From Victivallis vadensis (lineage in GTDB: Bacteria; Verrucomicrobiota; Lentisphaeria; Victivallales; Victivallaceae), in NCBI GenBank assembly GCA_040394635.1, contig JBEBRW010000010.1, forward strand, positions 39,340 to 103,339: a DNA stretch of 64,000 nucleotides, read 5' to 3'. The first letter of the stretch is position 1. The number at the start of each line of letters is the position of its first letter. Made by a program: the position numbers and the translations under genes. Shown piece by piece: positions 3,995-37,665 of this stretch. The notes under the pieces are model-generated. The model did not search any database. It had not been told where the DNA came from and saw nothing but the letters and a program-made list of their open reading frames with translations.

Positions 3995-4408
3995 TTAATC
4001 CTGAATACTGGTGCCGACGCTGGAGATCCCGTCGGCGCCAACGGTCAGGTCCTGCCTGGTGGCCTGAATCGTCCTGGCAATGCCATCCCAGTTTTTCTGA
4101 TTGGGGAGCGTCGAGATTACGCCGCTGTCGGACTTGCCGGCAAATATCTTGGCGCCGGGCGTCGGGTCCTGCGTGGTCGCAATGCTGACCGATGCATACG
4201 CCATCCACCCGGACTGCCAGGCTATGACCGTTTTATTTTTCGTGCTCTCGCTCAGGGTCTTGACGACCGATTCGCTGGATTGAATCACCTGCTCAATGCT
4301 GCCGTCCTCGCGATAGATCGTGGTGGTGGACCGGGTCGGCGCAAAACATCCGGCGGTCATCAGCATTGCTCCAGCAGCAATGATTAATTTCTGCATATTT
4401 TTACTCAT
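3995..4408 (-). CDS. Small lipoprotein, the last gene of the tail operon
   Basis: Signal peptide with a lipobox (AMLMTAGC). The start overlaps the stop of the upstream fibre gene by 8 nt, which suggests translational coupling. Confidence 0.6.
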   Translation of the reverse strand: MSKNMQKLIIAAGAMLMTAGCFAPTRSTTTIYREDGSIEQVIQSSESVVKTLSESTKNKTVIAWQSGWMAYASVSIATTQDPTPGAKIFAGKSDSGVISTLPNQKNWDGIARTIQATRQDLTVGADGISSVGTSIQD

Positions 4409-5456
4409 CGGGGGCTCCCCAGCTGTAGAATGCGCTCACGGCTTCACCGGCCCAACTGGTGGAGCCGTCCGGATTGATGGTGACGGGACGAACCTCGATT
4501 GTGCCCGTAGTGGTATCGGCATCGCCCACAGTCACCGCGGGAACGCCGCCTGAACCGCCGGCAGCGGCCACTGCGCCGGGCTTCCAGGCTTGGGTAGCCG
4601 CCTCATAAACCAACGCCTGCCCATCGGATGCGTCGGACAAGCCGGACACGTCGGACAAGTCAGCCAGAGAGCTTGCACCGGCAGGGCCCCGGTCCCCTTT
4701 GTCGCCTTTGGGGCCGGGTTCTCCCGTATCGCCTTTTTCGCCCTGATCGCCTTTGGGGCCGGGTGCTCCGGTATCGCCTTTTTCCCCGGCCGGGCCGCCG
4801 GCTATCTTCAAGGGATCGGACCAGAGGCCGCCGATTTCACGGTTGCGAAGGCGGTACCAGCGGGCATTTTCGACACTCGCGGACCAATCGCCCGGCTCGG
4901 ACTCATTCGAAGAATATTGCAGCTCGAGACCGGCCTGCCAGAGCGATTCCACCCACGTGCGGTCCGCCCAATGCGCGGCCACCTCTTTCGGCTCCGTGCC
5001 GGAAACCGGGTCGATCGGCATAATTGCCTTGATGGGAAATTTACAATAATAAACCGCTTTGCCGCTGGTCTCCATGCCCCACAACTCAAACCAGGCGCCA
5101 ATGGATTCCCGCCCGTTGAGAGCAGCCAGGAAGTTAACCGTGTTGGCATTGATGACAAGCCCGACTTCGCCTTGTGCCAGGCCGGACGTATCGATATTTT
5201 CGCTCAATATCCGGCACATGGGTTCAGTGGTACAGTCATGGTCGCAATCGATCGCGGCCCGCCAGCTCGGCACTTCCGTCAGGTCAAGCGGCTTAAGCTG
5301 ACCGGACTCGGACGAACACAGCTGAATGGTCCATTCGGGCGAAGTGGCGAAGGCAATTTCCGGCTTCGTCAAACTACTCCCGCCAACGTTTCCCGGCTCC
5401 GAGTCACTGACGCGCCTGCGCAGGGTATTTGTGCTAACATTGTACTGATACAGCAT
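4401..5456 (-). CDS. Tail-fibre-like protein with a collagen-like G-X-Y segment
   Basis: A 351-aa ORF with 13 uninterrupted G-X-Y triplets (GPAGEKGDTGAPGPKGDQGEKGDTGEPGPKGDKGDRGPAG). It sits at the distal end of a tail gene string. Confidence 0.8.
   Translation of the reverse strand: MLYQYNVSTNTLRRRVSDSEPGNVGGSSLTKPEIAFATSPEWTIQLCSSESGQLKPLDLTEVPSWRAAIDCDHDCTTEPMCRILSENIDTSGLAQGEVGLVINANTVNFLAALNGRESIGAWFELWGMETSGKAVYYCKFPIKAIMPIDPVSGTEPKEVAAHWADRTWVESLWQAGLELQYSSNESEPGDWSASVENARWYRLRNREIGGLWSDPLKIAGGPAGEKGDTGAPGPKGDQGEKGDTGEPGPKGDKGDRGPAGASSLADLSDVSGLSDASDGQALVYEAATQAWKPGAVAAAGGSGGVPAVTVGDADTTTGTIEVRPVTINPDGSTSWAGEAVSAFYSWGAPDE
4677..4796 (-). repeat. Collagen-like G-X-Y triplet repeat (coding)
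   Basis: aa 221-260 of the 351-aa ORF. It contains the internal duplicate GEKGDTG(A/E)PGPKGD. Confidence 0.85.
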
Positions 5457-5459
5457 ATT

Positions 5460-6854
5460 TTATCCTTTTTTGTTTGCCGGGGTGTTTTTTGCTCCGGACA
5501 TTATTTGTTGATATTTGGCGAACAATTCTTCGCCGACCTGGCTGCGGAACCATGGCTCGTGCTCATGTTCCGATTTCTCAAATTTCTTGCGGTGTTCACC
5601 CGTGAAGCCGTTTCTGCTCAACCCTTTGATTCCGATCGGAATGGTTTCGCCGGGGTATTTCCTCATGGTTTTGTCGGCAAACTTGTGCCAGAGGTCGATG
5701 TCCACGAAGTTGCCTTCGCAGGAGCGGACAATGTCGATAAACCGGTCGCGATGCCGGAAATGGCAGCCGCTGAGCGCGGTAATGCACAGGTCCTCGCGTT
5801 GATTTACCAGCCGGTGTTTTTCCAGCGGCCAGTAATAAGTCGCGTTTTTCCAGCCGAAAAGACCGGTACTGCTCCGGGCCAGTTTGACCGTTTCGGCCAG
5901 GTATTCCGGCGGATAGAAATCATCGTCCTCCATGAAGATGATGATGCCGCCGTTCCATTCCTTTAGTCCGGCCAGAAGATTTTCGCGGTGCGTGAAACGC
6001 TTTTTCGGGTCATGTTCCCGGCGGATATATTTGCAGGCGCGGGCGGGACCGACCGGCTCTTTGCCGTCATCCACCACGACCCATTGGAAATTCTGGAAGG
6101 TCTGGTTATTGAGCATTTTTTCGTGCAGGGCAAACAGCGCCTGACGGTCGCGGGTCACCGTCAGGACCGTAACTTTCGCCTCGCGGGCCGCCAGTCCCGC
6201 CAACTCCAGCGCCCGGCTCAGAAGCGGATTGAAATCCGGCACATATTCCTGCTCCGTCATGATCTTCAGCCGCTTTTCACGGATCTCCGCCGCGAATTCG
6301 GGGTCCATGGCGAAACATTCCTGTTCCGCCTGGCTCAAATTGCCGATCGCCCAGGCCCGGTGAACCGGATATCCGTGCTGGGCCTCGATCATCAGGATAC
6401 CCGCATCCGCCAGATGCTTCAGCACGCATTGCGGACAGGCCGGACGCGGGAAGCTGAAGTCCCCCGTATCGGCGCTTTTCACCGCCGCCCGCGCCGGGCG
6501 CGCATACATCCCCAGTACCGGAAGCTGCGCCGCAGGGATTCCGGCGGCCTGTTCTTCCGTCAGCACCCGGGGCCATGTCTGGGCGGAAACCCGGTTCATG
6601 ACGTCCTCGCCGAACCGTGCTTTCAGCTTTTCCCGGCTCTCTTCCGTCCATTTGATCGAGGCCAGGAACTGAATCAAATGGGCAATGATGGTTTTCCGGT
6701 GGCAGCGGCTGCAGCTTTTCAGCTTTTCGTTCATCGCGTTTACCGGGGCCTCCAGATTGGGCAGCAGCTCGGTCAGGAACCCGATGTTTCCGGTGAAATC
6801 CTGGTGTGTTTTCTCATCCAGGTTCGACAAAAATTCTTTGGTTTGCAGAGACAT
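5460..6854 (-). CDS. Two-domain protein: an N-terminal Cys-pair domain fused to a GT-A (family-2-like) glycosyltransferase domain
   Basis: The C-terminal half has VTVLTVTRDR...FQWVVVDDG and a DXD-type FMEDDDFYP motif. The N-terminal half has CSRC and CPQC pairs. Confidence 0.75.
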   Translation of the reverse strand: MSLQTKEFLSNLDEKTHQDFTGNIGFLTELLPNLEAPVNAMNEKLKSCSRCHRKTIIAHLIQFLASIKWTEESREKLKARFGEDVMNRVSAQTWPRVLTEEQAAGIPAAQLPVLGMYARPARAAVKSADTGDFSFPRPACPQCVLKHLADAGILMIEAQHGYPVHRAWAIGNLSQAEQECFAMDPEFAAEIREKRLKIMTEQEYVPDFNPLLSRALELAGLAAREAKVTVLTVTRDRQALFALHEKMLNNQTFQNFQWVVVDDGKEPVGPARACKYIRREHDPKKRFTHRENLLAGLKEWNGGIIIFMEDDDFYPPEYLAETVKLARSSTGLFGWKNATYYWPLEKHRLVNQREDLCITALSGCHFRHRDRFIDIVRSCEGNFVDIDLWHKFADKTMRKYPGETIPIGIKGLSRNGFTGEHRKKFEKSEHEHEPWFRSQVGEELFAKYQQIMSGAKNTPANKKG

Positions 6855-6864
6855 ATATCCTCCT

Positions 6865-9609
6865 TTATTCGGTCTCGAATCGATTCATAGCGGTACCGCA
6901 GTCGAAATCATCCGACCAGCTGTCGACTTCGCCGTTATAGTTCCAATATTGATAGGGCGTGGAGTTGCAGATATACTGTCCGCACCCGACATTTCCCCAA
7001 TACCCCCTGCACTGTTGGATATGGTAGTCAAGTTCGTTTAGCGGAGCGAAGGGCTCATCCACAAAGTCACATAATTCCTGGCTGGTCGCAAATCCCATTA
7101 CCAGACTTCGGATGATGGTATTGGACGAGTCACTGCTTTCGCTGTAAAAACAGTCCCCATTGCTTCCCGATCCCGAATCCGAAGCGGAGCAGCTTTCGGT
7201 ATATGGGAAACCCCGTTCCGCTTCTTTTGGCGGAATCTGATAAAAGACATAAGCTACCTGGTGATACGTGCCGCCGTTTGCCGAGGAACCTTCGCACGAG
7301 CCCGAATAACTGACGGAATAATTCGATGAACTGTAATGATCAACCCGGATTGCATAATACAAACCCTGATAATAGGCGATCATAGAATTCAACCACTTCT
7401 GATACAGAGCATTGTTCTCGTACACCCAGAGATCAATTTCATGTACCGAATCGAGAAACGGCGTCAGCCGGCGGAACTCAAATTCATACCCGTCCGGTAA
7501 CTGAAGATATCCGAATAATTCATCATTTTCCGGATCAAGAAGAGTATTGGGATTTACCGGAATCGGCACATTCAAATGATTGTCATAGGAAATAACGAAC
7601 TGATTATTTTCAATTTTCACATTGAACACTCCGATCCCATACTGTTTGCCTCCTTTCCAGGCACTTTTGTCACATTCACGATAATCGGATGACCAGTTGC
7701 AATCATAATAATGAGACCAACCGTGAGGGGTCCAGTAAGCACCATATAGCCTGGTATATTTACCATTTATATCCGGAGTTCCGTCGCCATCGCCACCGTC
7801 AGAGCCGTCACCAGTTCCATCGCCGGTTCCATCACCAGTACCATCACCAGTACCATCACCAGTACCATCGCCAGTGCCATCACCAGTGCCATCGCCAGTA
7901 CCATCACCAGTTCCATCACCAGTTCCATCACCAGTGCCGTCACCAGTTCCATCGCCAGTGCCGTCACCAGTGCCGTCACCAGTGCCATCGCCAGTGCCAT
8001 CACCAGTACCATCACCAGTACCATCACCAGTACCATCACCAGTACCATCACCAGTACCATCGCCAGAGCCGTCACCAGTTCCGTCACCAGTTCCATCGCC
8101 AGAGCCGTCACCAGTTCCGTCACTGCTGCCATCACTAGAGCCATCGCTGGAGCCATCACTGGAGCCATCGCTACTGCCATCGCTGGAGCCATCACTGGAG
8201 CCATCGCTACTGCCATCACTGCTACCATCGCTACTGCCATCACTGCTACCATCGCTAGAGCCATCACTGCTACCATCGCTAGAGCCATCACTGCTGCCGT
8301 CACTGGAGCCATCGCTTGAGCTATCACTATTGCCATCATTGCTCAATCCGCCGTAGTAATCTCTCAACCACGAGTCCTTCACCGGAATATTCGTTTTTAA
8401 CCATGGACTGTATGCTCCCGTCTTGTCTTCCTCATCTTCCGTCTCCGGGGGCCTGCTGCCATCGGGCTCCTCTTCCACCACGACACACTCACAGTCATTG
8501 ATTTTCAACGTGAAGTCGGCATAGCGGGGCATATAAGACGGTTTCTCCTTGCTCGAATTTTTCATGATCAGACGATCATAGTAAAATCCCGAATAGATAA
8601 ATAAATTCCCCTGTTCTGCCGGAATCCAGTCTTTGACGCTGGTATTGTTGCGGACATACCACTCATCGTAAACCGCCTTGCGTCTTGCCAGTTCCACCTT
8701 GTACGCTTCTTTGTCTTCTTCCGTGGCCTTTTCGCCCGGCTTCGGCAATTTATCAAACACCGGCTCGGGCTCACAGCCAAAGTCTGATGTAGTGGAAAAA
8801 ACCAGTTTTCCACTGATCGGACCGTCAAACAAATCACACACATCCGCCGCCCGGATCAGGACCGACGTTTTCTGAATCACCGTCCCCAAATCCCCCCGCG
8901 GCAAAACGTCGATTATCCCCATAGTGTGGCCCTGAAGTACCCTGTTATGAAAATTCGGAAAACTGCTCTGGGTGGCCGCGCCGCTGTAAAACCGGGCCCA
9001 GGGCGGACGCTCCTTCACCGGAATATCCCGCATTTCGCGGCTCAACTCCATGAACTCCTCCGTCGCCATCGAGGTGAACGGACAAATTTCCGAACCGCGA
9101 AATGTCAGCTGCCGGAGCTGAACCCCGAGCTCGCTGTCCACCAGCTCCCCGAAGGTATTTGCGAGAAGCCCCAGATATACCACCGCATAACATGCATGCG
9201 TACTGAAGGTCCCGTGGTTTTTCGGCTTTCTGCTCGTGAAATAGAGCCTGTCCGGCAGCCCGATGAACCTGCGGCAGCCCATTTTGGCGTTATAACGCGG
9301 ATAGTATTTCCGCAGGTGGCTGAGCCACTCCGGAGAATCCACTTTGGCCAGCTGCAGATGATACGTGCCGTCGATATGATCCAGTGGCCAGCGCAGCTCC
9401 GGGTTGCCCCAGCCCAATTCGGCATGAAATATCCCAAGTTTATCGATGCCGGACAGCGTCACCGTGGCCGAAGCGTCCTCCGTGCAGAACATTTTGCCGC
9501 ACAACGTATTGTCCACGACCGTACCGCCTCCGCCGCCGCCGGAATCGGATAATTCGTCTTCCTCATTGCGGCACGGACATTTTTTCGCTTTCAATGGTAC
9601 CAGCCTCAT
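6865..9609 (-). CDS. Large Cys/Tyr/Trp-rich tail-associated protein with a central (SSDG)n(TGDG)n low-complexity linker
   Basis: A 914-aa ORF in the tail operon, 1 nt downstream of the preceding gene's stop. The repeat tract spans aa ~424-610. Confidence 0.8.
7780..8340 (-). repeat. 12-nt-period tandem repeat (coding) encoding tetrapeptide units
   Basis: About 561 nt. From tract length I estimate roughly 18 SSDG-type units (8121-8340) and 28 (T/S)GDG-type units (7780-8120). Five identical 12-mers (caccagtaccat) occupy 8001..8060. Elsewhere the units differ at synonymous positions. Confidence 0.95.
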
Positions 9610-9610
9610 A

Positions 9611-10141
9611 TCAGCAGCTCCTGAAAATGTAGTTGTAAATCATGCCGTATTGCTGCTGGTAAATCCGCAACGAATTCTCACCGGTTTCGACGATCGCCAG
9701 AAGAATGCTCAAACCCTCATCCCCCGATATCGAAAAATGACTCCGCACCACATATCCCTGGAAAACCGGCAAATCATCCGACATCGTGAACTCCGCGATA
9801 ATGAACGAAACCCCGCCGTTCAGCGAAAGCTGCTCCGGGTCGCACGACAGCACGGTGTCGTTGATCACCGCATTCCCGGCCGGCATCTCCATCCGTACAG
9901 CAGCGGCGAGCCGCCCGTCGACGACCGCCACTCCCGGCACCCCGTCTTCCGAACAATCCACCACCTTGAAATACCCCCCATACCCTCCGCCCCCACCGCC
10001 CCATCCTTCCTTCGCCAGGCTGATCCGCTGGCCGGAAGCCGACTGCTCGAGGATGATATTGCTCCCGCTCAAGGGCTTGAGACGCTCGATCTTCTTATTC
10101 AGAAATCGACAGGCACTCTGCCAGTCCAGAAAAGTACTCAT
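9611..10141 (-). CDS. Hypothetical tail/baseplate-associated protein (176 aa) with a Gly run
   Basis: I chose the internal ATG at 10141 (MSTFLDW...). It has an AGGAGAG RBS and avoids overlapping the upstream gene. The protein contains WGGGGGGYGGYF. Confidence 0.6.
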   Translation of the reverse strand: MSTFLDWQSACRFLNKKIERLKPLSGSNIILEQSASGQRISLAKEGWGGGGGGYGGYFKVVDCSEDGVPGVAVVDGRLAAAVRMEMPAGNAVINDTVLSCDPEQLSLNGGVSFIIAEFTMSDDLPVFQGYVVRSHFSISGDEGLSILLAIVETGENSLRIYQQQYGMIYNYIFRSC

Positions 10142-10149
10142 ATTCTCTC

Positions 10150-11610
10150 CTATGCATTGAAAAATGACGAGTTCCAGGTGTAACCGCGCGGCGCGTTTTC
10201 CCACTTGCGGATGATCCGGGTCCATACGTCTCCCTGGTAAACGCAGCGCTCCACCGATTGATGAACCTTGCGCCAGCTGCCGTTCAGGGAGCTCCTCCCC
10301 TGCAGCGTACCGTTGTGGATGATATCCCGGTCCAGCCAGTCTTTCAGCGAGCTCATGTTGGTATGGGGTTCACCGGACTTGTACGAGGTCAGGGTGATGG
10401 TGAAGCATTCCAGTGGATTTTCCACGAAATTCAGCGGCAGCTGCGAGTCGGAAATCAACGGGCACTGGCTCGAGCTGCTCCAATCCGGGTATTCGGAATA
10501 ACTGCCGCCATTATCGACCCAGCCGCATTCGACGGCGGAAAATTTATGGTAGGTCAGTTCCACGTTGCTTTCGGTACTGCCGTCGAAACTGTCCGGTATA
10601 TTCGAATAAGTCGGGTACAGGTAAGAAGGCTCGCGCGCCACCATGGTAATCTCCCATTCGCCCGGATTGCTGCGGCGGCTCTCCACGGAGGCGATGATAA
10701 AACCGCTCTCCGACCAGGATGCGGCATCGCTGCCAGTGGCCGGGCGAAACTCCTCCAGATCCTCGTCACGCACCCGCCAGCGCCCCGTGTAAGATACCTC
10801 GCGCACCATTTCGCCGGTGCCGAAAGTGATGTACTTCAAGCGGTCCGAGCGCCGGATATCGAGCAGCCGCATGCCGGAATACACCGCCGTCAAACTCACG
10901 TGATAACCGTACACTCCCACTGCCGAACAATTCCGAGACGACACCACGTAATTCTCGCCGGCCCACGCCGCCCCCTGCCCCACATCGTTTTCCTGCAGGA
11001 ACTCCTCGATTTTTTCCAGGCTCACCTGCCAGCGCGCCGTTTTGGTGCATTCCAGTTCGCCGGTTTTGCGTTCGCTCGGCAGTCCCAGCATCAGCGTGCT
11101 CATGTCGCGGATTTTCAGCCGGACGTCCCACTCGCCTTCGGGCTTCTGCGAAGCACTGATATTGTCGCAATAAAAATTCTCGCCGGCCCAGATGATGAGA
11201 TCCCCCACCTGCGGCAGCCACTCCTGCAAGGTCTCGTCGTTGATCAGAAACGACGCGTTGATTTCGTGTTCCAGATTGTTGTTGATCTGCCGCGAAAACC
11301 CGGTCATCAGCGATTCCAGGTTTTTCTTGCGCGCCGCAAACGTCACCGTGTACAAATTGCGCATCTGCCCGGAATCGGCCTTGATCGAGGTGACCACCCA
11401 GTCGCTGTCCTCGTGATAACTGCTGCTGTCGGTGTTGGGGACCTTCAGGGCGTCGCCGATCTGCCCGACCCACGCCTCAACCTCATCGCGAAACGCATCC
11501 CAACGCTCGAAATCGCCCGCTTCCGGCAGGATCTCCCAGACCAGCGTCCGGAAAATCTGGTTGGCGTTATCAACACTGAATCCAATGTTGTTTTTATGTG
11601 TCAACTGCAT
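10150..11610 (-). CDS. Tail hub / distal-tail-like protein (486 aa) made of 3-4 tandem ~80-aa modules
   Basis: It follows the chaperone genes and the short protein at the tape-measure position. Internal repeats share L(E/Q)E(F/W)...W(A/S)(G/E)(E/S)(N/G)(F/Y)...GEW(D/E)(V/I). Confidence 0.65.
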   Translation of the reverse strand: MQLTHKNNIGFSVDNANQIFRTLVWEILPEAGDFERWDAFRDEVEAWVGQIGDALKVPNTDSSSYHEDSDWVVTSIKADSGQMRNLYTVTFAARKKNLESLMTGFSRQINNNLEHEINASFLINDETLQEWLPQVGDLIIWAGENFYCDNISASQKPEGEWDVRLKIRDMSTLMLGLPSERKTGELECTKTARWQVSLEKIEEFLQENDVGQGAAWAGENYVVSSRNCSAVGVYGYHVSLTAVYSGMRLLDIRRSDRLKYITFGTGEMVREVSYTGRWRVRDEDLEEFRPATGSDAASWSESGFIIASVESRRSNPGEWEITMVAREPSYLYPTYSNIPDSFDGSTESNVELTYHKFSAVECGWVDNGGSYSEYPDWSSSSQCPLISDSQLPLNFVENPLECFTITLTSYKSGEPHTNMSSLKDWLDRDIIHNGTLQGRSSLNGSWRKVHQSVERCVYQGDVWTRIIRKWENAPRGYTWNSSFFNA

Positions 11611-11622
11611 ATTTTTTCCTCA

Positions 11623-12063
11623 TTAATCATTTATTTCCAACCCGTCCCGCTTCTGCTCGCCCAGACGCTCGGTGTTCTGCTCGACCGCCCGGATCAGGTC
11701 ATCCAGCCTCAGCTGCAGCTCGCGCAGGACCTCCGCCATCTGCTCATCGCTTCCGCCCCGTTCCTGCCGGTTTTCGTTATTGAAAATCCGGCGGCTCGAA
11801 TCGGTCCGGATATTCTGTTCGATTTCCGTGACGGCTCCATAGCTGATCTGCGAATTCATCTCTGCCGAAGCCGCCGGAGTTCCGCCGTAATACGCCGCGC
11901 CGTGCAGGACATTCGTGGTGGCGTGCCCCGCGGAATTTTCGCTGCCGGAATTCACCCCGCTGAGCTGACTGGCGCCGAGCAGCTCTTCGAACCGCCTCAG
12001 ATAATGCTCCAGCAGTTCAGGGACGTATCCGTTCCCTTCATATTCAAATGTCGGTGTACTCAT
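11623..12063 (-). CDS. Small protein (146 aa) at the position normally held by the tape-measure gene
   Basis: ATGA start/stop overlap with the upstream -1 frame ORF. The C-terminal part looks helical (DEQMAEVLRELQLRLDDLIRAVEQNTERLGEQ). Confidence 0.65.
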   Translation of the reverse strand: MSTPTFEYEGNGYVPELLEHYLRRFEELLGASQLSGVNSGSENSAGHATTNVLHGAAYYGGTPAASAEMNSQISYGAVTEIEQNIRTDSSRRIFNNENRQERGGSDEQMAEVLRELQLRLDDLIRAVEQNTERLGEQKRDGLEIND

Positions 12064-12467
12064 TTTTCAACCTTTTCACTGTTATTGATTATTTCCTGCG
12101 CGGTGTATTCCCGGTCGGTGCTGACCATGGTTTTGTCTTCATTGATACGGTGTGCCAGCTCCAGCGCCGCCCTGAGCTTCTCGCCCGACACCACACTGCC
12201 GGAGCTCCGCTGAAAAGCACTTCCGCGGCGGCGGCGCATTTCATCGAGCAGTGTTTCATTTTTCTGCAGCGATGTGCTTAACGCAATCACCGGGTATTCG
12301 AGCATGCTGTTTGCCTGCGCCCGGTCGGCGAGCGAAACCAGCGCCATGAAGATATTCAGCGGCTCACTCAGCAAACGTTCCAGCGTGTAACCGCCGAAAA
12401 CCTGCAGGACCCGGGCGGCGGCAAACTCAAAATCAGGCTCGCGGAATTCCCTGTTCAGTTTTTTTTT
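12060..12467 (-). CDS. -1 frame extension of the tail assembly chaperone (T part of a G/GT-like fusion)
   Basis: The -1 frame is open from the A9 run down to the stop at 12060. No ATG or good RBS of its own lies near the 5' end; the ORF track could only start it at a TTG at 12374. Confidence 0.55.
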   Translation of the reverse strand, partial: KKKLNREFREPDFEFAAARVLQVFGGYTLERLLSEPLNIFMALVSLADRAQANSMLEYPVIALSTSLQKNETLLDEMRRRRGSAFQRSSGSVVSGEKLRAALELAHRINEDKTMVSTDREYTAQEIINNSEKVEK

Positions 12468-12799
12468 GAGCCGTTTTCTTCAGCCTCGAAATCGCTGCCG
12501 AACGCCATATACATCCCCAGCTCAATCAGCCCGGCATAGCCGAGCCGGAACAAATCGCAGCTCAATCCTTCCGGGAAATACGGCGCCAGCAAATCACAGA
12601 TCCGCCGCCCGCCCCGTTCCATCAATCCGGTCCTGGACGCCAGGTCCAGATCCGCCGCGGCGCAATCCTGCTCCACCTCCCGGATCATCTCATTGAGCCT
12701 GTCGTAATCCAGGATCGAAAGCTTCCGCACTTCCACTTCTTCGCCGCCGCCGATCCGCAGCCGCACCGTCCGTTCCCCAAGCTTCGGAAAAAATCGCAT
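12455..12799 (-). CDS. Tail assembly chaperone (G-like, 114 aa)
   Basis: A small acidic protein immediately after the tube-like gene. It ends at the slippery run. Position and size match the lambda G paradigm. Confidence 0.7.
   Translation of the reverse strand: MRFFPKLGERTVRLRIGGGEEVEVRKLSILDYDRLNEMIREVEQDCAAADLDLASRTGLMERGGRRICDLLAPYFPEGLSCDLFRLGYAGLIELGMYMAFGSDFEAEENGSKKN
12461..12467 (-). other. Candidate -1 programmed ribosomal frameshift slippery heptamer A_AAA_AAA
   Basis: The minus strand reads TCA AAA AAA AAC TGA in frame 0, from a run of nine A (12459..12467). The heptamer is in X_XXY_YYZ register, two codons before the stop. Confidence 0.6.
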
Positions 12800-12812
12800 T
12801 TGCCGGCTCCTT

Positions 12813-13286
12813 TCAGTTGACGCTGATCTTTTTCATGATGACCCCGCTGCTGTCGGGATACGCCGTGAATTCAACCGCGAGCACATGCTCCTGGTTGCCG
12901 TCCAGCCGGTAGGTGCACGAGGGGCGCATTACCGCCGCCGGGAACTCATAACCGGCTTTGTCATCCGGGTTGACCGGCGTCAGGCGCAGCAGCCCGCTCC
13001 GGCTTTTCAGGTCCACGCCGATGAGGCCGAGATTGATTTCGCCTGTGTCGTCGAGCATGGTTTCGAAGGCTTTGTCGATCTCCTTCAGATCGGCGCTGAT
13101 GCTTACCTTCATGCCGGTCACAATCTCGCGCAATATTGCACCGCCGCTCTGGTCGCATTTGGATTCGTACACCTGCGGCTCGATCTTGATTTGCGGCGGA
13201 TTCTGGGTGCCCCCCAATACCTGATTTTTGAACGTCAGGGCGCATGAGCCGATTTTGAAATTCTGGACGTCATAACTGTTTGACAT
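12813..13286 (-). CDS. Major tail (tube)-like protein, 157 aa
   Basis: Only the C-terminal 157 aa of track ORF 12813..14183 are credible. The ATG at 13286 (MSNSYDVQNFKIG...) follows AAGGAG by 6 nt. The upstream part of the track ORF is antisense to the scaffold and capsid genes. It is the first gene of the leftward operon. Confidence 0.7.
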   Translation of the reverse strand: MSNSYDVQNFKIGSCALTFKNQVLGGTQNPPQIKIEPQVYESKCDQSGGAILREIVTGMKVSISADLKEIDKAFETMLDDTGEINLGLIGVDLKSRSGLLRLTPVNPDDKAGYEFPAAVMRPSCTYRLDGNQEHVLAVEFTAYPDSSGVIMKKISVN

Positions 13287-13327
13287 GTTGATCTCCTTTC
13301 GGGTTGTTGTCTGTGAACTAACTTTAC

Positions 13328-13376
13328 GAAAAAGGTCAACCTGACGCTCATTTCGTGCGTGAAGTTGACCTTTTTC
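13328..13376. promoter_or_regulatory. Perfect 13-bp inverted repeat (GAAAAAGGTCAAC-N23-GTTGACCTTTTTC) in the divergent head/tail control region
   Basis: Read directly from the sequence. Each arm carries an outward-facing TTGACC, a -35-like hexamer. Confidence 0.4.
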
Positions 13377-13418
13377 ACCAGTTGTAACGACAAACCCCCA
13401 ACCAAAAAGGAGACAGCA

Positions 13419-14036
13419 ATGGAACTGATGGAGATCATCAGAAAAGCCGCGGCCGGCGAAGCTCTGAATCAGGAAGAAAAAGACTTCCTGGCTTCGTACA
13501 AGCCGCAAGATGCCCCGAAAGGGCGGCTGGACAACGAAATAAAGCGGAACCGGGAACTGGCGGCACGCAATCAGGAGCTCACCGCCTCCATCGACGAGTT
13601 GACCGGCAAACTCGAAGATCTGGAATCCCAGTCCGCCCCGGAACCCGTCCGGCAGAGAAGAGAATACATGCGCGAAATCAACCAGCTGAAAAAGAATATC
13701 AAACTGCTGGCCGAAGAACGCGACGGTCACCGCGACGAACTGCAGAAAATCAAATTCCGCAGCCGCGTAACCGATATCGCCGGACATTATCAGTTCAACG
13801 ATCCGGAGTATCTCGAATATCTGCTGGGCAAGAATCAGCTCGATGCCGAAGACCCCGAACAGGTCAAGGACTTCATGGCCCGTATCCGCGAGGAAATGCC
13901 GCGCCACTTCAAGGTGCAGCTGCGTCCCGGCGGCGGCAGCAATCCCGGTCACGACCATCTCGCTGATTTCACCTCGGCCCAACAATCCGGCGACATCATG
14001 CAAATGCTTTGCCACGCCCCCGAACTCAAGAACTAA
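13419..14036 (+). CDS. Scaffolding-like coiled-coil protein
   Basis: The ATG at 13419 follows AAGGAGA. The protein (MELMEIIRKAAAGE...) is charged and heptad-like (NRELAARNQELTASIDELTGKLEDLESQ). It lies directly upstream of the capsid-like gene. Confidence 0.65.
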   Translation: MELMEIIRKAAAGEALNQEEKDFLASYKPQDAPKGRLDNEIKRNRELAARNQELTASIDELTGKLEDLESQSAPEPVRQRREYMREINQLKKNIKLLAEERDGHRDELQKIKFRSRVTDIAGHYQFNDPEYLEYLLGKNQLDAEDPEQVKDFMARIREEMPRHFKVQLRPGGGSNPGHDHLADFTSAQQSGDIMQMLCHAPELKN

Positions 14037-14051
14037 AAAAAGGAAAAAAAC

Positions 14052-15200
14052 ATGACTCTCTACACCTACAGCTTCCAGGAAAAACGCCGCGACCTCTCCG
14101 ACATCCTCTCCACCGTGATCAAGAATGAACCCCGCTTCATCTCCTGCTTCAAACGCGTGGGCGACGCCACCCAGCAGAAACACGAGTGGCTCGAGGATCA
14201 GATCGCCGGCCGTTCCGTGACCGTGCAGTCCGTCAGCACCGGCGTCATCACGCTCTCCGCTGCCGACGCCGCCAAGGTCAAGGTCGGCACGCTGCTGGTG
14301 ATCAAAGACGATTCGGCCCTGTTCCGCATCGCCCAGATCAACAGCGCCACCACCTTCACGCTGGCCAAAGTCGCGGCCAACGGCTCAACCACGGCCGCTC
14401 CGGCCGCAGGCGCCGTCATGAACATCGTCAGCACCCCGATCGCGGAAGGCAGCGCCACCGGCGAAGGCGAAGAAACCTCGCACCTCTCCGATACCGCGTA
14501 CAACTGCACCCAGATCTTCCGCAAAGACATCGTGATCACCGGCTCGGCCCTGGCCATCAGCGTGGCCGGCAATGTCGACAACCAGCTGAACCGCCAGACC
14601 AATTTCGCCCTCGGCGAACTCTCCCGCGACCTGAATCGCGTGGCGCTCTTCGGCCGCCGTACCGAAAACACGGTCGCGGCCCGCGGTGAAATCGGCGGTC
14701 TCTACTACTTCACCGAAAACAGCGCGCTGAAGATCAATGCCAACGGCTCGATCATCGACAGTTTCATGATCAACGACGGTGCCCAGGCCGTCCTCGGCGA
14801 AGGCGGTGTTCCCACCCAGATCCTCTGTTCGCCCGGACAGGCCCGCGTGCTCTCCAACGAGTACAAGAACCGCCTGCAGATCGTCCGCTCCGACGACGCC
14901 CGCGGCGCCTATGTCGCCGTCATCATCAATGAAAGCAACGGCAGCACCATGACCATCATGGCCGATCCGGACGTACCGGACACCGAAGCCTGGGTGAACG
15001 ACGTCAACGGTTTCGGACTCTCGAACCTGCACGGCCGCGCCATCAGCGACCAGGATTCCACCCCGAAGGGCTTCGACGGCGTCAAGCGCATGGCCCTCGG
15101 CGAGCTGACGCTGGAGTTCAAGAACGCCCACCAGCGCCTCTGCCGCATCTACGGCCTCAAGCCGAGTGCCCAGGCCCTGGCCGCGCTCCGCTCCGAATAA
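14052..15200 (+). CDS. Major capsid protein candidate (382 aa)
   Basis: The call rests on size, an Ala/Gly/Thr/Ser-rich composition, its position after a scaffold-like gene, and the strong hairpin right after its stop. The N-terminal KHEWLEDQ region recalls SU10/DUF5309-type capsid proteins (memory only). Confidence 0.7.
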   Translation: MTLYTYSFQEKRRDLSDILSTVIKNEPRFISCFKRVGDATQQKHEWLEDQIAGRSVTVQSVSTGVITLSAADAAKVKVGTLLVIKDDSALFRIAQINSATTFTLAKVAANGSTTAAPAAGAVMNIVSTPIAEGSATGEGEETSHLSDTAYNCTQIFRKDIVITGSALAISVAGNVDNQLNRQTNFALGELSRDLNRVALFGRRTENTVAARGEIGGLYYFTENSALKINANGSIIDSFMINDGAQAVLGEGGVPTQILCSPGQARVLSNEYKNRLQIVRSDDARGAYVAVIINESNGSTMTIMADPDVPDTEAWVNDVNGFGLSNLHGRAISDQDSTPKGFDGVKRMALGELTLEFKNAHQRLCRIYGLKPSAQALAALRSE

Positions 15201-15212
15201 GTTAACCCCCTT

Positions 15213-15240
15213 CCCCCTGCACCAGCAGGGGGATTTTTTT
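15213..15240 (+). terminator. Stem-loop with a U-tract immediately after the capsid gene
   Basis: CCCCCTGC-ACCA-GCAGGGGG followed by ATTTTTTT. Confidence 0.6.
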
Positions 15241-15256
15241 GATTTCAGGAGAAATT

Positions 15257-15625
15257 ATGATCACACTTGAAGATGCCAACAATTATTTCCAGAATCATCT
15301 GGACGGCGCCAAATGGCTGGCGCTGCCGGAGGAAACCCGCACCGCGGCGCTGCAGATGGCCGCTCGCGACGTCGCCGCCCGGCTGAACCGCGAATCGATC
15401 GATCCCGCCCGGATTTTTCAGCTCTACGCCGCCTGCGAACAGGCCGTTTTTCTGGCACTGGACGAAAGCGGCCGCCGCGAACTTTTCGTGGAAAGCGAGC
15501 AGATCGAGGGCCTCGGCAGCGTCAAATACGCCGCCCCGGCCGGCAACGAAACCGGGTGGTCGCCGCGCGCCCTCCGTTTCATCGAATGCGAGCTGAATTT
15601 ATTTCCGCGCATCGGCCGCGGCTGA
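15257..15625 (+). CDS. Head-tail adaptor / connector-like small protein (122 aa)
   Basis: The ATG at 15257 lies 6 nt after AGGAGA (the track starts at a TTG at 15239). The N-terminus ITLEDANNYF...W..L.EE.R.AAL..A resembles gp6/DnaT-like head-tail connector families (memory). Confidence 0.6.
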   Translation: MITLEDANNYFQNHLDGAKWLALPEETRTAALQMAARDVAARLNRESIDPARIFQLYAACEQAVFLALDESGRRELFVESEQIEGLGSVKYAAPAGNETGWSPRALRFIECELNLFPRIGRG

Positions 15626-15633
15626 ATTCTCCC

Positions 15634-15669
15634 AGTCGGACCCGTCGGACCTGTCGGACGAGTCCGACT
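15634..15669. repeat. 9-nt-period array: 3 x GTCGGAC then 1 x GTCCGAC (member of the intergenic element family)
   Basis: The units are agtcggacc cgtcggacc tgtcggacg agtccgact. The junction GTCGGAC-GA-GTCCGAC is a perfect palindrome. The array lies between convergent gene ends. Confidence 0.85.
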
Positions 15670-16688: not shown

Positions 16689-18803
16689 ATGATTAAACCG
16701 GCAGAAGATATCCGCAGACTTGACGACCGTTTCTTTGACGAAACGGAGCAGCCCGCCGTGGAAATTCCCCTTGAGGAATTCATGGAAGAATACGAGGCAG
16801 TGAGCTACCGCGAAGTCGGCGAAATCACCGACATTCCCGATATCGTCACCCCGACCCGCGATTTCTTCGCCGAAACCGGTCCGCTCGCCAAATCCGCCAT
16901 GGCCGGCAACCGCCCCTACGAACACCGCCCGCAGCAGACCGATATGGCGATCAATACCGCCATGGCGCTGCAGGGCCGTTACAACCTCTGCGTGGAGGCC
17001 CCCACCGGCGTCGGCAAAAGTTTCGCTTATCTGATCCCCGCCATTCATTTCGCCAAGACCCAGACCTGCCCGGTGGTCGTCTCCACCGAAACGATCAACC
17101 TGCAGGAACAGCTGGTCGAAAAAGATATTCCGTTTTTAAGCGACGTCACCGGCATCGAGTTCCGCGCCGCCCTGGCCAAGGGCCGCAGCAACTATCTCTG
17201 CCAGCGCCGTTTGCACATGGCCTCGTCCGAACATCAGGACCAGCTACTGCCGCTGGCCTCGCTGGTGCTGGATCTCGAGCGCATGGCGCACTGGCTCGAC
17301 AAAGGCGGCACCGGCGACCGCGACGACATCAATTTCCGCTATGACCCCATCGCCTGGAGTTACTGCTGCTGCGAGGCCGGCAACTGCATGGGCAACAAAT
17401 GCGCCTATTTCCGCAGTTGTTTCTACTGGAAGGCCCGGATGGAGTGGGAAAAGGCCGACATCATCGTGACCAACCACGCCATGTTCTTCACCGATTTGAA
17501 GATGAAGCAGGACGTCAGCCTCGACATGACACTGCTCCCCAAGTGGAGCGCCGTCATCATCGACGAGGCCCACACGCTCGAGGACAGCGCCGCTTCGCAC
17601 CTCGGCCTGCGGGTATCCAGCGGCGGCTTGCAGGGCTTCCTGAACCGTCTCTTCAACCCCGACAACGGGCGCGGCATCCTGCTGCGCAAGGGCGAGGAAG
17701 CGATGAACCTGCGCAAGATCATCGCCGAGCTCAAACCGCAGACCAGCGCCTTCTTTTCGCTGTTCGAAAACATGCTGGCGGAGAAAAACGATTCCGTTTA
17801 CCGCGTCCATACTCCGAAAATGGTGCCGAACCTGCTCGCCGCCGGCCTCGGCCGCCTCCGCAACGCCCTGGCGGCATTTGCCGAAATCCAGGAGGAAGAC
17901 AAAAACTTCAAAACCGAGCTCGAGGCCCAGGTCAGCCGCTGCGACGCCTTTATCGACGGCATCGATGCCTTTATCGACATGGCTTATCCCGAGCACGTCT
18001 ATTGGATCGAGGAGGAAAAAGGCGGCGTAACGCTGCAGGGCGCCCCCCTGAACATCCCGGAACTGCTCGAACAAATCCTGTTCCACAAACGCTACCCGGT
18101 GGTCCTGACCAGCGCCACGCTCACGGTCCGGCGGACCTTCGACTATTTCCGCTCGCGCACCGGCTTTATCAACGGCACCGAATTGAGGCTGGATTCGCCG
18201 TTCTCGCCCGATCAGGTGCGGCTCTATATCCCGCGCTCGATGCCGGAGCCGAACCACGACGATTACAAAGACGCGCTGGTGCAGCAGATTCCGCGCTTCC
18301 TGGACGTGACCCACGGCAAGGCGTTCGTGCTGTTCACCAGTTACCAGCTGCTGCGCCACTGCGCGGAAAAACTGCGCTATTATTTTGACGAAAGAGGCAT
18401 CGCGCTCCTCACCCAGGGCGAAATGAACCGCACGCAGATGCTGCGCGAATTCAAAAACGACATTGACTCGGTGATCTTCGGCACGGACAGTTTCTGGACC
18501 GGTGTCGACGTACCGGGCGAAGCCCTCAGCAACGTGATTCTGACCAAATTTCCGTTTGCCGTGCCGTCACACCCGCTGATCGCCGCCCGCTGCGAGCGCA
18601 TCGAAAAATCCGGCCAGAGCGCCTTCATGGAATACAGCCTGCCGGAAGCGGTGCTGAAGTTCCGCCAGGGCATCGGCCGACTGATCCGCAGCAAGGACGA
18701 CACCGGCATCATCGTGATCCTCGACCGACGCGTCATCTCCAAACGCTACGGCCAGATGTTCATCGAATCCCTGCCCCCCTACCCCGTCGAATACGTCAAC
18801 TAA
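16689..18803 (+). CDS. dinG: DinG-family ATP-dependent DNA helicase (Fe-S, XPD-like)
   Basis: Walker A VEAPTGVGKSF, DEAH box IIDEAHTLED, and a Cys cluster (CCCEAGNCMGNKCAYFRSC) between the motifs. 704 aa. Confidence 0.9.
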   Translation: MIKPAEDIRRLDDRFFDETEQPAVEIPLEEFMEEYEAVSYREVGEITDIPDIVTPTRDFFAETGPLAKSAMAGNRPYEHRPQQTDMAINTAMALQGRYNLCVEAPTGVGKSFAYLIPAIHFAKTQTCPVVVSTETINLQEQLVEKDIPFLSDVTGIEFRAALAKGRSNYLCQRRLHMASSEHQDQLLPLASLVLDLERMAHWLDKGGTGDRDDINFRYDPIAWSYCCCEAGNCMGNKCAYFRSCFYWKARMEWEKADIIVTNHAMFFTDLKMKQDVSLDMTLLPKWSAVIIDEAHTLEDSAASHLGLRVSSGGLQGFLNRLFNPDNGRGILLRKGEEAMNLRKIIAELKPQTSAFFSLFENMLAEKNDSVYRVHTPKMVPNLLAAGLGRLRNALAAFAEIQEEDKNFKTELEAQVSRCDAFIDGIDAFIDMAYPEHVYWIEEEKGGVTLQGAPLNIPELLEQILFHKRYPVVLTSATLTVRRTFDYFRSRTGFINGTELRLDSPFSPDQVRLYIPRSMPEPNHDDYKDALVQQIPRFLDVTHGKAFVLFTSYQLLRHCAEKLRYYFDERGIALLTQGEMNRTQMLREFKNDIDSVIFGTDSFWTGVDVPGEALSNVILTKFPFAVPSHPLIAARCERIEKSGQSAFMEYSLPEAVLKFRQGIGRLIRSKDDTGIIVILDRRVISKRYGQMFIESLPPYPVEYVN

Positions 18804-19601: not shown

Positions 19602-19613
19602 GCGAGGTCCACC

Positions 19614-26182: not shown

Positions 26183-26279
26183 CTTGCACAATCTCCGTAT
26201 CTGTTTTGTTCATCCTATGAATTTAACACGGCAAAGCCTCATATTCAAGCCAAAAATCGCAAAAACTGCGGTCATGGAG

Positions 26280-35871: not shown

Positions 35872-37665
35872 TTAGCTTTCCTTATTTGCGGTATGCTTCT
35901 CCGGCAGCACGACTTTCAGATGCAGTTCCCTGAGCTGCTTCGGCGTCACTTCCGCCGGGGCATTCATCATCAGGTCCTGCGCCTGCTGGTTGAACGGGAA
36001 CGCGATCACTTCGCGGATATTCGGTTCTTCGGCCAGCAGCATCACGATGCGGTCGACGCCGGGGGCGATCCCGCCGTGCGGCGGCGCGCCCAGGCGGAAC
36101 GCACTGATCATGCCGCCGAATTTGTCGTCCACCACGCTTTTGTCGTAACCGGCGATTTCAAACGCCTTGTACATGACTTCCGGCTGGTGGTTACGAATCG
36201 CGCCGCTGGAGAGCTCGATGCCGTTGCAGACGATATCGTACTGATAAGCCAGGATGTCCAGCGGATCTTTGTTCAACAGCGCGTCCATGCCGCCCTGCGG
36301 CATCGAGAACGGGTTGTGACTGAAGCCGACTGCGCCGGTTTCCTCGTCCGCTTCGAACATCGGGAAATCGACGATCCAGCAGAATTTGAAGCTGTTTTTG
36401 TCAATCAGTTCCAACTGACGGCCAAGCTCGGGGATGACCGCGCCGCCGATGCGTTCGACCATCTTTTCCTTGTCCGCCAGGAAGAACATGGCGTCGCCGT
36501 CCTTCACACCGCCGAGAGCTTTGAGCTTGTCGAGCTGCTCGCGCTGCATGAATTTGACGATCGGGCTCTTTTCTTCGCTGCCGGTCCAGATGATATAGGC
36601 CATGCCCTTGGCGCCGTTTTCCTGCGCATATTTGATCATGTCGTCGAAGAACTTACGCGACTTTTCGGCAACCTGCGGCACCTTGATGCCGCGCACCACG
36701 CCGCCCTTGGCCACCACGTCGGCAAAGGCTTTGAATTCGCAATTGGCGAAAACATCGCTTACGTCGATCATTTCCAACGGGTTGCGCAGGTCCGGCTTGT
36801 CGCTGCCGAAGCGGCGCATGGATTCGCGGTACGGAATCCGCGGGAACGGCAGGTCGTCGATCTGCTTTTTGCTGAATTCAACGAAAATCGAGTGCATCAG
36901 ACCTTCGACCAGCTGGAAAATGTCTTCCTGTTCGACAAAGCTCATTTCCATGTCGAGCTGGTAAAACTCGCCCGGCGAACGGTCCGCCCGGGCGTCTTCG
37001 TCGCGGAAGCACGGCGCGATCTGGAAGTAACGGTCGAAACCGGAGACCATCAGCAGCTGCTTGAACTGCTGCGGAGCCTGCGGCAGCGCATAGAATTTGC
37101 CGGGATGCAGACGGCTCGGGACCAGATAGTCGCGGGCGCCTTCCGGTGAACTCGCGGTCAGGATCGGGGTCTGGAATTCATGAAATCCTTTTTCCCACAT
37201 GTATTTGCGCATGGCGGAAATCACATTGGAGCGCAGGATGATATTTTTCTGCAGTTTGTCGCGGCGGAGGTCGAGGAAGCGGTATTTGAGGCGCATGGAT
37301 TCCGGGGCCTGGTCGTCCTTGGCCACCTGAAACGGAATCACGTCGGCCTCGCCGAGGACTTCCATATCGTCGGCCACCAGTTCGAGTTCGCCGGTCGCGA
37401 TCTTGGGGTTGATGTTCTCGGCGCTGCGCTCGACGATCTGGCCGCGGAACGCGATTACGCTTTCCACCCGCCAGCGTTCCAGCGACTGGTAAAACGCCTT
37501 TTCCGGATTGATCACCACCTGAGTGATTCCGTAATGGTCGCGCAAATCGATAAAGATCACGCCGCCATGGTCGCGCACACTGTGCACCCAACCGGCAAGT
37601 TTAACAATTTCACCGACATTGCTCTTGCGCAATTCTCCGCATGTATGGGTCCTGAATTTACTCAT
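35872..37665 (-). CDS. aspS: Aspartate--tRNA ligase
   Basis: N-terminus MSKFRTHTCGELR..VKLAGWVHSVRDHGGVIFIDLRD, FQTPILT, and class II motif 3 GGIAPGVDRIVMLL. 597 aa. Confidence 0.95.
   Translation of the reverse strand: MSKFRTHTCGELRKSNVGEIVKLAGWVHSVRDHGGVIFIDLRDHYGITQVVINPEKAFYQSLERWRVESVIAFRGQIVERSAENINPKIATGELELVADDMEVLGEADVIPFQVAKDDQAPESMRLKYRFLDLRRDKLQKNIILRSNVISAMRKYMWEKGFHEFQTPILTASSPEGARDYLVPSRLHPGKFYALPQAPQQFKQLLMVSGFDRYFQIAPCFRDEDARADRSPGEFYQLDMEMSFVEQEDIFQLVEGLMHSIFVEFSKKQIDDLPFPRIPYRESMRRFGSDKPDLRNPLEMIDVSDVFANCEFKAFADVVAKGGVVRGIKVPQVAEKSRKFFDDMIKYAQENGAKGMAYIIWTGSEEKSPIVKFMQREQLDKLKALGGVKDGDAMFFLADKEKMVERIGGAVIPELGRQLELIDKNSFKFCWIVDFPMFEADEETGAVGFSHNPFSMPQGGMDALLNKDPLDILAYQYDIVCNGIELSSGAIRNHQPEVMYKAFEIAGYDKSVVDDKFGGMISAFRLGAPPHGGIAPGVDRIVMLLAEEPNIREVIAFPFNQQAQDLMMNAPAEVTPKQLRELHLKVVLPEKHTANKES

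Follow-up and report, generated by a model that had tools for sequence, protein, structure and literature searches.

The window analyzed here, 64,000 nucleotides (nt) of Victivallis vadensis DNA (contig JBEBRW010000010.1, positions 39,340 to 103,339), encodes a 914-amino-acid (aa) protein in the tail module of a prophage, and the middle of that protein is a tandem array of acidic tetrapeptides. This spacer, made of two blocks of acidic tetrapeptides, is unusual for its length; the tail-module fusion protein that contains it is nearly an orphan, and a glycosyltransferase is encoded next to that protein. We give about an even chance to the reading that the tract is a disordered acidic spacer of about 190 residues, which links a distal domain rich in Cys and Tyr to a conserved amino-terminal domain (N-domain) in the distal-tail protein of a siphovirus-type prophage. 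The N-domain would be the proximal attachment module, and the carboxy-terminal domain (C-domain) would be a candidate receptor-binding or adhesive head. Repulsion between Asp charges and the high content of Gly would keep the chain expanded and flexible, and an expanded tether would give the distal domain both reach and orientational freedom. In-frame slippage or unequal recombination would change the number of units and so tune tether length, and glycosylation by the neighboring family 2 glycosyltransferase (GT2) would make the tether stiffer and shield it against proteases.

The tract is regular in frame and extreme in composition. An in-frame parse recovered 45 in-register 12-nt units (aa 423 to 602, window positions 7804 to 8343, 540 nt), essentially the roughly 46 tetrapeptides that the initial annotation had estimated. 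The switch from a Ser-type to a Thr/Gly-type block, which had been put near 8120, was located at 8115/8116, and the five identical 12-mers that had been reported at 8001 to 8060 were found as a perfect run of 65 nt. The 17 SSDG units span aa 431 to 498, SGDG accounts for 2 of the 26 units of the Thr/Gly-type block by the per-unit list, and a degenerate tail follows directly after the last [T/S]GDG unit. TRF reported arrays of period 12, 24, and 36 over 7777 to 8342 with scores of 201 to 413, and the tract is by far the largest tandem array of the window. Three open reading frames (ORFs) in alternative frames, with HQYH, PSPV, and MALV patterns, were all present in the ORF list as claimed, and they are shadows of the repeat. 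The earlier description of the tract was accurate wherever it could be checked. Counted over 190 aa, the tract contains G74, D48, S40, and T25, carries a net charge of about −48, and lacks any hydrophobic residue; Gly makes up 39%, Asp stands at every fourth residue, and Ser plus Thr make up 34% (65 residues). In a charge-hydropathy plot (Uversky), the tract lies deep on the disordered side (H 0.35, |R| 0.25, boundary −0.18). The tract therefore fits a disordered linker: its hydropathy is low, its net charge is high, hydrophobic residues are absent, and it lies between modules that evolve independently.

The two ends of the protein differ in their relatives. An exhaustive HMMER search of 1.84 billion representative proteins with the N-domain returned a single match, the 375-aa protein P0001 (31% identity, E of 2e-25), and blastp aligned P0001 with aa 5 to 377 of the window protein (E of 3e-37). 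A profile built from the N-domain and P0001 recovered P0001 alone and no further relative, and the N-domain family therefore has two members among more than 1.8 billion representative proteins. The alignment backs the start codon of the 914-aa ORF, as M1, P5 L6 K7, and C11 P12 C13 are invariant. P0001 ends at about aa 377 of the window protein, ahead of a junction of about 45 aa and of the start of the tract at aa 423. Because the only homologue stops there as a separate protein, a domain boundary is placed near aa 377, and comparison of the two sequences shows the N-domain to be an independent module that is a separate gene in its only relative. A poly-Gly run, SGGGGGG, lies at aa 23 to 29 (9520 to 9540, minus strand). 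The C-domain had no relative in a 5.8-billion-cluster database (401 candidates) and no match in IMG/VR, JGI metagenomes, or INPHARED phages. Neither flank had a Pfam, PHROG, or PDB sequence match. Likewise, the protein with the repeat excised had no match among the 8,000 word-sharing candidates scored, tblastn of the 914-aa protein against the 50,697 phage records of INPHARED found nothing, and back-translated peptides of the protein found no match in IMG/VR, GTDB representatives, or JGI metagenomes. A look-up of the exact sequence likewise returned no record.

The gene order around P0001 is informative. P0001 is encoded on four near-identical Logan contigs (L107 to L110) of at most 3.5 kb from four sequencing runs (SRR12261223/5/6/7), for which we found no literature, and the contigs have a GC content of 47%, versus 55% here. 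On L107, the order of genes matches that of the window: a homologue of the window's 204-aa ORF (34% identity, E of 6e-18), the N-domain, a spacer-containing protein, and a 131-aa homologue that resembles aa 139 to 211 of the 464-aa window protein (blastp E of 5e-4). The spacer-containing protein of L107, however, is a separate gene of 494 aa that follows P0001 with an ATGA overlap. The first ~270 aa of this protein form a low-complexity region rich in T, S, V, and P, with a hydroxyl-rich spacer (T68 and S31 in 250 aa); Cys and Tyr are abundant in the last ~225 aa. The L107 pair and the window protein are thus alike in synteny, in an N-domain that is 29 to 31% identical, and in a hydroxyl-rich spacer followed by a Cys/aromatic-rich C-terminal part; they differ in that L107 has two genes rather than one and in that its spacer is neither an acidic tetrapeptide array nor a clean tandem array. 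Because the N-domain and the spacer protein are two genes in L107, the 914-aa protein looks like a fusion of genes that are separate in the relative. The 494-aa protein begins MNKYWKKNTFPVKG, a weak match to the junction motif W[LK]K..[IF]PVK (z of 2.55, 15 of 500 shuffles). Homology between the C-domain and the 494-aa protein was rejected, as the BLASTP E value was 0.47 and Smith-Waterman shuffles gave a nonsignificant z of 1.25, and an analogy of position and composition is what we retain. What this comparison shows to be conserved is a low-complexity spacer kept in position and composition (hydroxyl rich, with no hydrophobic core) and not in sequence. Moreover, the GC content at third codon positions (GC3) is 0.66 in the N-domain but 0.34 in the tract and 0.50 in the C-domain. 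Because GC3 falls from the junction onward, the linker and C-domain may be of foreign origin, a cassette from a lower-GC source that would have been fused to the N-domain.

Neighboring genes place the protein in a tail module. The phage-derived region extends from about 3995 to 15650. On its plus strand are genes for a scaffold (PF06810), an SU10-type major capsid protein (MCP; PF17236, 1e-46), and a 128-aa protein; the nearest capsid protein of a cultured phage is at most 28% identical to that MCP. The tail genes are on the minus strand, reading away from the head block from about 13350, in the order Ig-domain protein, two small chaperone homologues, the 146-, 486-, 204-, and 914-aa proteins, a GT2 fusion, a collagen-like fiber, and a lipoprotein, and they are packed with gaps of 1 to 10 nt or overlaps. 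A related siphovirus in IMG/VR (contigs L113/L117), the MCP of which is 70% identical, is complete, with every gene on a single strand. Its head genes run TerL, portal, scaffold, MCP, a homologue of the 128-aa protein, minor head protein, and connectors, and its tail genes run Ig major tail protein, two chaperones, a 950-aa tape measure, a homologue of the 486-aa protein, proteins of 165 and 355 aa, and an 860-aa fiber. The 486-aa protein aligns over its full length with the product of L117 15002-16495, downstream of the tape measure gene (33% identity, E of 1e-79), and the N-terminal part of the collagen-like protein aligns with the 860-aa fiber (27% identity, E of 2e-9). A profile search with the 486-aa protein added only contigs L118 and L119, which end at or just past the gene, to the same IMG/VR contig. 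The 165-aa protein of L117 is weakly related to the gene upstream of P0001. The 355-aa protein of L117 was considered as a relative of the N-domain and rejected (hhalign probability of 0.1% against the alignment of N-domain and P0001). Gene order thus places the 914-aa protein in the variable distal-tail slot, between the conserved 486-aa protein and the fiber gene. The name "tail protein" in the initial annotation is upheld by this synteny with L117 and by nothing else, as no characterized tail homologue was found by Pfam, PHROG, or PDB; the prophage itself is defective.

The 914-aa protein has no transmembrane segment and no signal peptide, the N terminus being without a hydrophobic core (Kyte-Doolittle maxima of 0.56 over 12 aa in the first 40 aa and 1.44 over 19 aa in the whole protein). 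Neither an LP.[TSA]G motif nor a run of (SD)3 or longer occurs anywhere in it. Because signal peptide, transmembrane segment, and LPXTG are all lacking, cytoplasmic assembly as a virion protein fits, and we reject a cell surface adhesin, for which signals of export and anchoring would be expected.

Several observations weigh against a working tail tether. The TerL, portal, minor head, connector, and tape measure genes of the related phage had no homologue in the 64-kb window, and the head and tail blocks lie on opposite strands and face away from each other. The prophage is therefore rearranged and incomplete, and the 914-aa protein may have ceased to be part of any particle. All of the remaining genes are intact, which could reflect recent decay, a remnant retained for some use, or a chimeric contig. 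Structure prediction of the flanks yielded no fold: AlphaFold2 (AF2) models of the C-domain from a single sequence (pLDDT of 34.0) and of the N-domain from a two-sequence alignment (pLDDT of 33.8) were unusable. The initial annotation described a linker between two Cys/Trp/Tyr-rich globular regions. The acidic linker and the composition hold (C11, W8, and Y19 in the 422 aa up to the tract; C10, W9, and Y30 in 302 aa of the C-domain), but "globular," like our "receptor binding," is drawn from composition and position. Moreover, because similarity of the C-terminal parts is not significant, a cassette may have been replaced rather than two genes fused. The GT2 might serve in lysogenic conversion, with host glycans rather than the 914-aa protein as its substrate. 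Finally, no second strain carrying the gene was found in the collections searched.

The glycosyltransferase suggests another primary function for the tract. The GT2 domain occupies aa ~248 to 330 of the 464-aa protein, carries DD and DDD motifs (DDD at aa 310), and is part of a soluble protein with no transmembrane segment. Upstream of it, aa 139 to 211 are like the stand-alone, CxxC-containing 131-aa protein of L107, so the enzyme is itself a fusion; it had no PDB sequence match. The SSDG/TGDG array might chiefly be the acceptor of this enzyme, forming a mucin-like or Sdr-like glyco-rod that would shield the tail protein or itself bind a host lectin or receptor. We regard this as unlikely, though it has several points in its favor: a third of the tract is Ser or Thr, a soluble GT2 with an intact DXD motif begins 10 nt past the gene, within one closely packed operon, and the positional counterpart in L107 is likewise hydroxyl rich. 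Moreover, in staphylococci, SdgA and SdgB glycosylate SD repeats and thereby shield them from proteolysis (PMC3794999). The family with only two members, however, allows no co-occurrence statistics, and the contig of the relative stops before any glycosyltransferase could be seen. SdgA and SdgB belong to a family other than GT2, and prophage GT2 enzymes often modify host polysaccharide, both of which count against the rod. O-glycosylation of Ser and Thr in the tract by the cotranscribed GT2 is plausible by analogy. A fuller version, a phage "glyco-tether" in which an Sdr-like Ser/Thr stalk would be O-glycosylated in the cytoplasm by the glycosyltransferase domain of the neighboring fused tail-module protein, tuned in length by in-frame 12-nt slippage, and convergent, on the virion of a gut or anaerobe Lentisphaerota host, with the staphylococcal SDR/Sdg system, is a reading in which we place little confidence.

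How the tract grew and what has been kept in it can be read from its codons. Among the 26 xGDG units, 7 of the 12 nucleotide columns (2, 4, 5, 7, 8, 10, and 11) are invariant, and the 31 synonymous differences, which are of five types, all fall at third positions of codons. The sole variation elsewhere is A/T at position 1 in two units, a conservative change of Thr to Ser. Of the 36 single changes that the consensus unit allows, 10 would be synonymous, and finding 5 of 6 variant types synonymous has a P value of ~0.008 when types and not cells are counted. The first Ser of the SSDG units is encoded by TCN in nine units and by AGY in eight; the two families are two mutations apart, and Ser is encoded in every unit regardless. 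No indel breaks the frame in the 540 nt. Because variation is near-exclusively synonymous, Ser is kept across two codon families, and the frame is unbroken, we conclude that the peptide of the tract is under purifying selection, as the initial annotation had proposed.

That annotation had set selection against a single recent expansion, and here the contrast was too simple, since the DNA bears footprints of amplification. Of the 24 Thr codons of the tract, 23 are ACT, while the rest of the ORF and its neighbors favor ACC and ACG; GGT and GAT are enriched, contrary to the preferences of the genome; and the GC3 of 0.34 compares with ~0.7 in neighboring genes (0.68 to 0.76). Strings of unit types such as CDCDC, FGHFGH, and OOOO are duplicated blocks of one to three units. 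The atypical codons, low GC3, and higher-order patterns indicate that a few founder units were amplified repeatedly at the DNA level. SGDG (TCT GGC ...) is a one-step intermediate between SSDG (TCT AGC ...) and TGDG (ACT GGC ...), and the two blocks therefore share ancestry. These patterns show that the tract grew by repeated multiunit duplication of DNA while selection purged nonsynonymous variants, and the DNA is not old and equilibrated. The perfect period-12 run of 65 nt bears out the suggested potential for slippage. On/off phase variation was considered and rejected, as the unit length is a multiple of 3 and slippage would alter length and not frame.

The same footprints could be taken to mean that the tract is functionless, a neutral, slippage-driven expansion tolerated in a decaying prophage gene. 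The prophage is incomplete and rearranged, the codon usage mirrors amplification of founder units rather than adaptation, and both higher-order duplications and a 65-nt perfect run are present. Neutral expansion, however, does not sit well with variation that is almost only synonymous, with Ser held across two codon families, or with a frame free of breaking indels. Moreover, the genes of the minus-strand module are all intact, the 486-aa protein aligns over its full length with its homologue, and a low-complexity spacer stands at the equivalent position in the only relative. We consider a functionless tract quite improbable.

Alternatively, the Asp residues of the tract might chelate Ca2+ and switch the tether from floppy to rigid. 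The density of carboxylates is high, 19 overlapping, EF-hand-like matches to D-x-[DNS]-x-D-G, in the looser form D-x-S-x-D-G, all fall within the tract (in the SSDG block), and some IMG/VR proteins with TGDG tracts bear the canonical EF-hand-like loop DTNNDGTVSSQE. The protein, however, has no match to Pfam TSP_3, EF-hand, or RTX at an E value of ≤0.01 and contains neither D-x-D-x-D-G nor GGxGxD, and Gly occupies ligand positions in the TGDG block. The spacer of the relative is not acidic in the same way, and binding of Ca2+ therefore would not be a conserved property. RTX and TSP3 repeats were rejected, as their motifs are absent, and we find a calcium-binding array hard to credit.

That the number of units or the continuity of the ORF is an artifact of repeat collapse, expansion, or a chimeric join is very improbable: no independent copy of the gene in any collection searched corroborates the length, and the arrangement of the prophage is odd, but the 45 units are all in frame, both flanks lie in one ORF, homology of the N-domain is coherent, and the repeats are imperfect (longest exactly repeated substring of 53 nt), so that, because no 55-mer is repeated, an assembler with k of ≥55 or reads of ≥100 nt would have a unique path and collapse or expansion of the tract is unlikely.

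Further features of the region lie outside the argument (Table 1). The listed ORF at 12060 to 12374 (minus strand) may be incomplete: a chaperone homologue of L113 aligns to 12437 to 12120, beyond the ORF, and 12060 to 12437 may encode a frameshifted G/GT-type pair of tail assembly chaperones or have a miscalled start. A strong hairpin resembling an intrinsic terminator (15212 to 15233, plus strand; nine pairs, seven of them GC; T7 tail) lies directly 3' of the MCP gene, and a scan for promoters and terminators inside the operon gave nothing notable. In L117, a membrane protein moron (14480 to 14944; phrog_3996, 3e-31) stands between the tape measure gene and the homologue of the 486-aa protein; the 146-aa ORF of the window is in about the same position and is unrelated to that moron. 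The 204-aa ORF contains a GGGGGGYGGY run. The 137-aa lipoprotein, the gene for which overlaps the collagen-like gene by 8 nt, is possibly a superinfection exclusion or spanin-like moron. Elsewhere in the window, DUF1559 pseudopilins are encoded, and these, together with the aspartyl-tRNA synthetase, mark the host as a member of the Victivallaceae. An Rfam search of the window found nothing. A second tandem array (25346 to 25596, periods of 75 and 39 nt) lies in an ORF at 25262 to 26191 (minus strand) and encodes PEVK-like (EEAKPVE/VPPAVVE) repeats at the C-terminal end of a predicted lipoprotein, a low-complexity spacer of the host with a different composition. Finally, two ORFs of 261 and 203 aa at 18816 to 20405 (plus strand; GC3 of 0.50 to 0.58; no Pfam or PHROG match) adjoin a DinG-type helicase (16689 to 18803; phrog_2488, 2e-72) and may be more foreign DNA.

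Table 1. Features of the 914-aa protein and its surroundings, with positions in the window
Feature	Position	Strand	Basis or remark
914-aa ORF: N-domain, acidic junction, repeat tract, and C-domain	6865..9609	-	ORF list, in-frame parse
N-domain core, homologous to stand-alone P0001	aa 1-377, 8479..9609	-	HMMER, blastp
Acidic junction joining what are two genes in the relative	aa 378-422, 8344..8478	-	P0001 ends at aa ~377
Ser-type block: SNDG, NSDS, 17 SSDG	aa 423-498, 8116..8343	-	TRF period 24/36 at 8120..8342
Thr/Gly-type block: 26 [T/S]GDG	aa 499-602, 7804..8115	-	TRF period 12, 26.3 copies, 87% matches
Longest perfect period-12 run, most slippage-prone part	7997..8061		65 nt = 5.4 units
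Degenerate tract end and Cys/Trp/Tyr-rich C-domain, candidate distal/receptor-binding part	aa 603-914, 6868..7803	-	
Artifactual alternative-frame ORF, HQYH pattern	7689..8138	+	
Artifactual alternative-frame ORF, PSPV pattern	7874..8356	+	
Artifactual alternative-frame ORF, MALV pattern	7767..8339	-	
464-aa GT2 protein	5460..6854	-	PF00535, 36.9 bits (cutoff 23.3); starts 10 nt downstream of the 914-aa gene
Upstream 204-aa ORF, syntenic in relatives	9611..10225	-	Probable start M29 (10141), just past the stop of the 486-aa gene
486-aa conserved distal-tail protein, synteny anchor	10150..11610	-	L117 homologue
146-aa ORF	11623..12063	-	
Collagen-like fiber protein, 351 aa, operon end	4401..5456	-	PF01391; PHROG tail fiber via collagen part
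Last tail-operon gene, 137-aa protein	3995..4408	-	Lipoprotein-type signal (...LMTAGC)
Aspartyl-tRNA synthetase	35872..37665		77-79% identical to metagenome-assembled genomes of Victivallaceae/Lentisphaeria

If the tract is a tether, the 914-aa protein would be a clean natural example of phage distal-tail proteins built from exchangeable modules, in which the spacers that join modules keep composition and position, not sequence, and can vary in length while staying in frame. With a GT2 gene next to it, glycosylation of a virion protein becomes directly testable outside the actinobacteriophages, and the locus adds to a very sparse knowledge of the phages of Victivallaceae and Lentisphaerota. 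By itself, an acidic low-complexity linker in a prophage that is defective neither opens nor settles a major question; it is more a curiosity than a novel type of system.

Glycosylated virion proteins have a reported precedent in mycobacteriophages that encode glycosyltransferases and have glycosylated capsids (Freeman et al. 2023, as cited in PMC11256854). Their phage-encoded enzymes decorate virion proteins, a precedent for the idea that the adjacent GT2 would act on a structural protein, and they differ in that PMC11256854 describes the glycans on major capsid proteins. The Clf/Sdr stalks of staphylococci (PMC3794999, PMC8561734) share a long, acidic Ser/Asp tandem spacer that distances a binding domain, repeat DNA that stays in frame, and, by analogy, a glycosyltransferase encoded nearby that could modify Ser in the cytoplasm. 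The unit of the tract, however, is a tetrapeptide with 39% Gly and not an SD dipeptide, there is no sequence homology, the host is a diderm of the Lentisphaerota, the gene lies in a prophage tail module, and the neighboring enzyme is a GT2 and not of the Sdg type. The resemblance to Ser-Asp stalks drawn by the initial annotation is therefore functional at most, as signal peptide, LPXTG, and a run of SD dipeptides are all missing. Collagen-like (GXY)n spacers of fibers, such as that of the 351-aa protein of the window, are also repeat spacers in a distal-tail protein, the length of which can be adjusted in frame. They have a period of 3 and form a rigid triple helix, whereas the tract has a period of 4, carries Asp in each unit, and is predicted to be disordered. 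A collagen-like helix was rejected for the 914-aa protein because the period is wrong; the protein contains no (G..)5 or longer run and no PF01391 match.

The closest parallels in sequence are viral. We found no paper on SSDG/TGDG tracts in phage tail proteins, and the initial annotation had named no description of such a tract in a phage-tail-type protein. That statement was too strong: a degenerate DNA pattern for (TGDG)5 detected 24 stretches among 2.9 million IMG/VR contigs, some in large phage proteins, though none is demonstrably a tail protein, and the pattern for five (S/T)SDG units detected 2. PHROG matches of these proteins arise from their low-complexity parts and are uninformative. 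The arrays reach 18 to 19 units and adjoin PT, DTG, and TTD low-complexity blocks in large viral proteins. In one contig (L091), a TGDG array separates two domains of a PHROG 1314 protein, which is nonstructural. Two large marine viral proteins with TTD/TGDG tracts (L103, 571 to 3630; L104, 552 to 2969) have the EF-hand-like loop DTNNDGTVSSQE shortly before the tract and share a conserved C-terminal segment, SPTRTTDSLFKDMLQLE. Compared with the window tract, the IMG/VR arrays (L081, L082, L084, L103, L104, and L091) have unrelated flanking domains, are shorter, and lack an SSDG block, but they have the same TGDG tetrapeptide, the same "block-switching," and the same placement before a C-terminal segment or between domains. 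Judged by these sequences, the TGDG array is rare but not unprecedented, and elsewhere it appears to serve as a generic linker.

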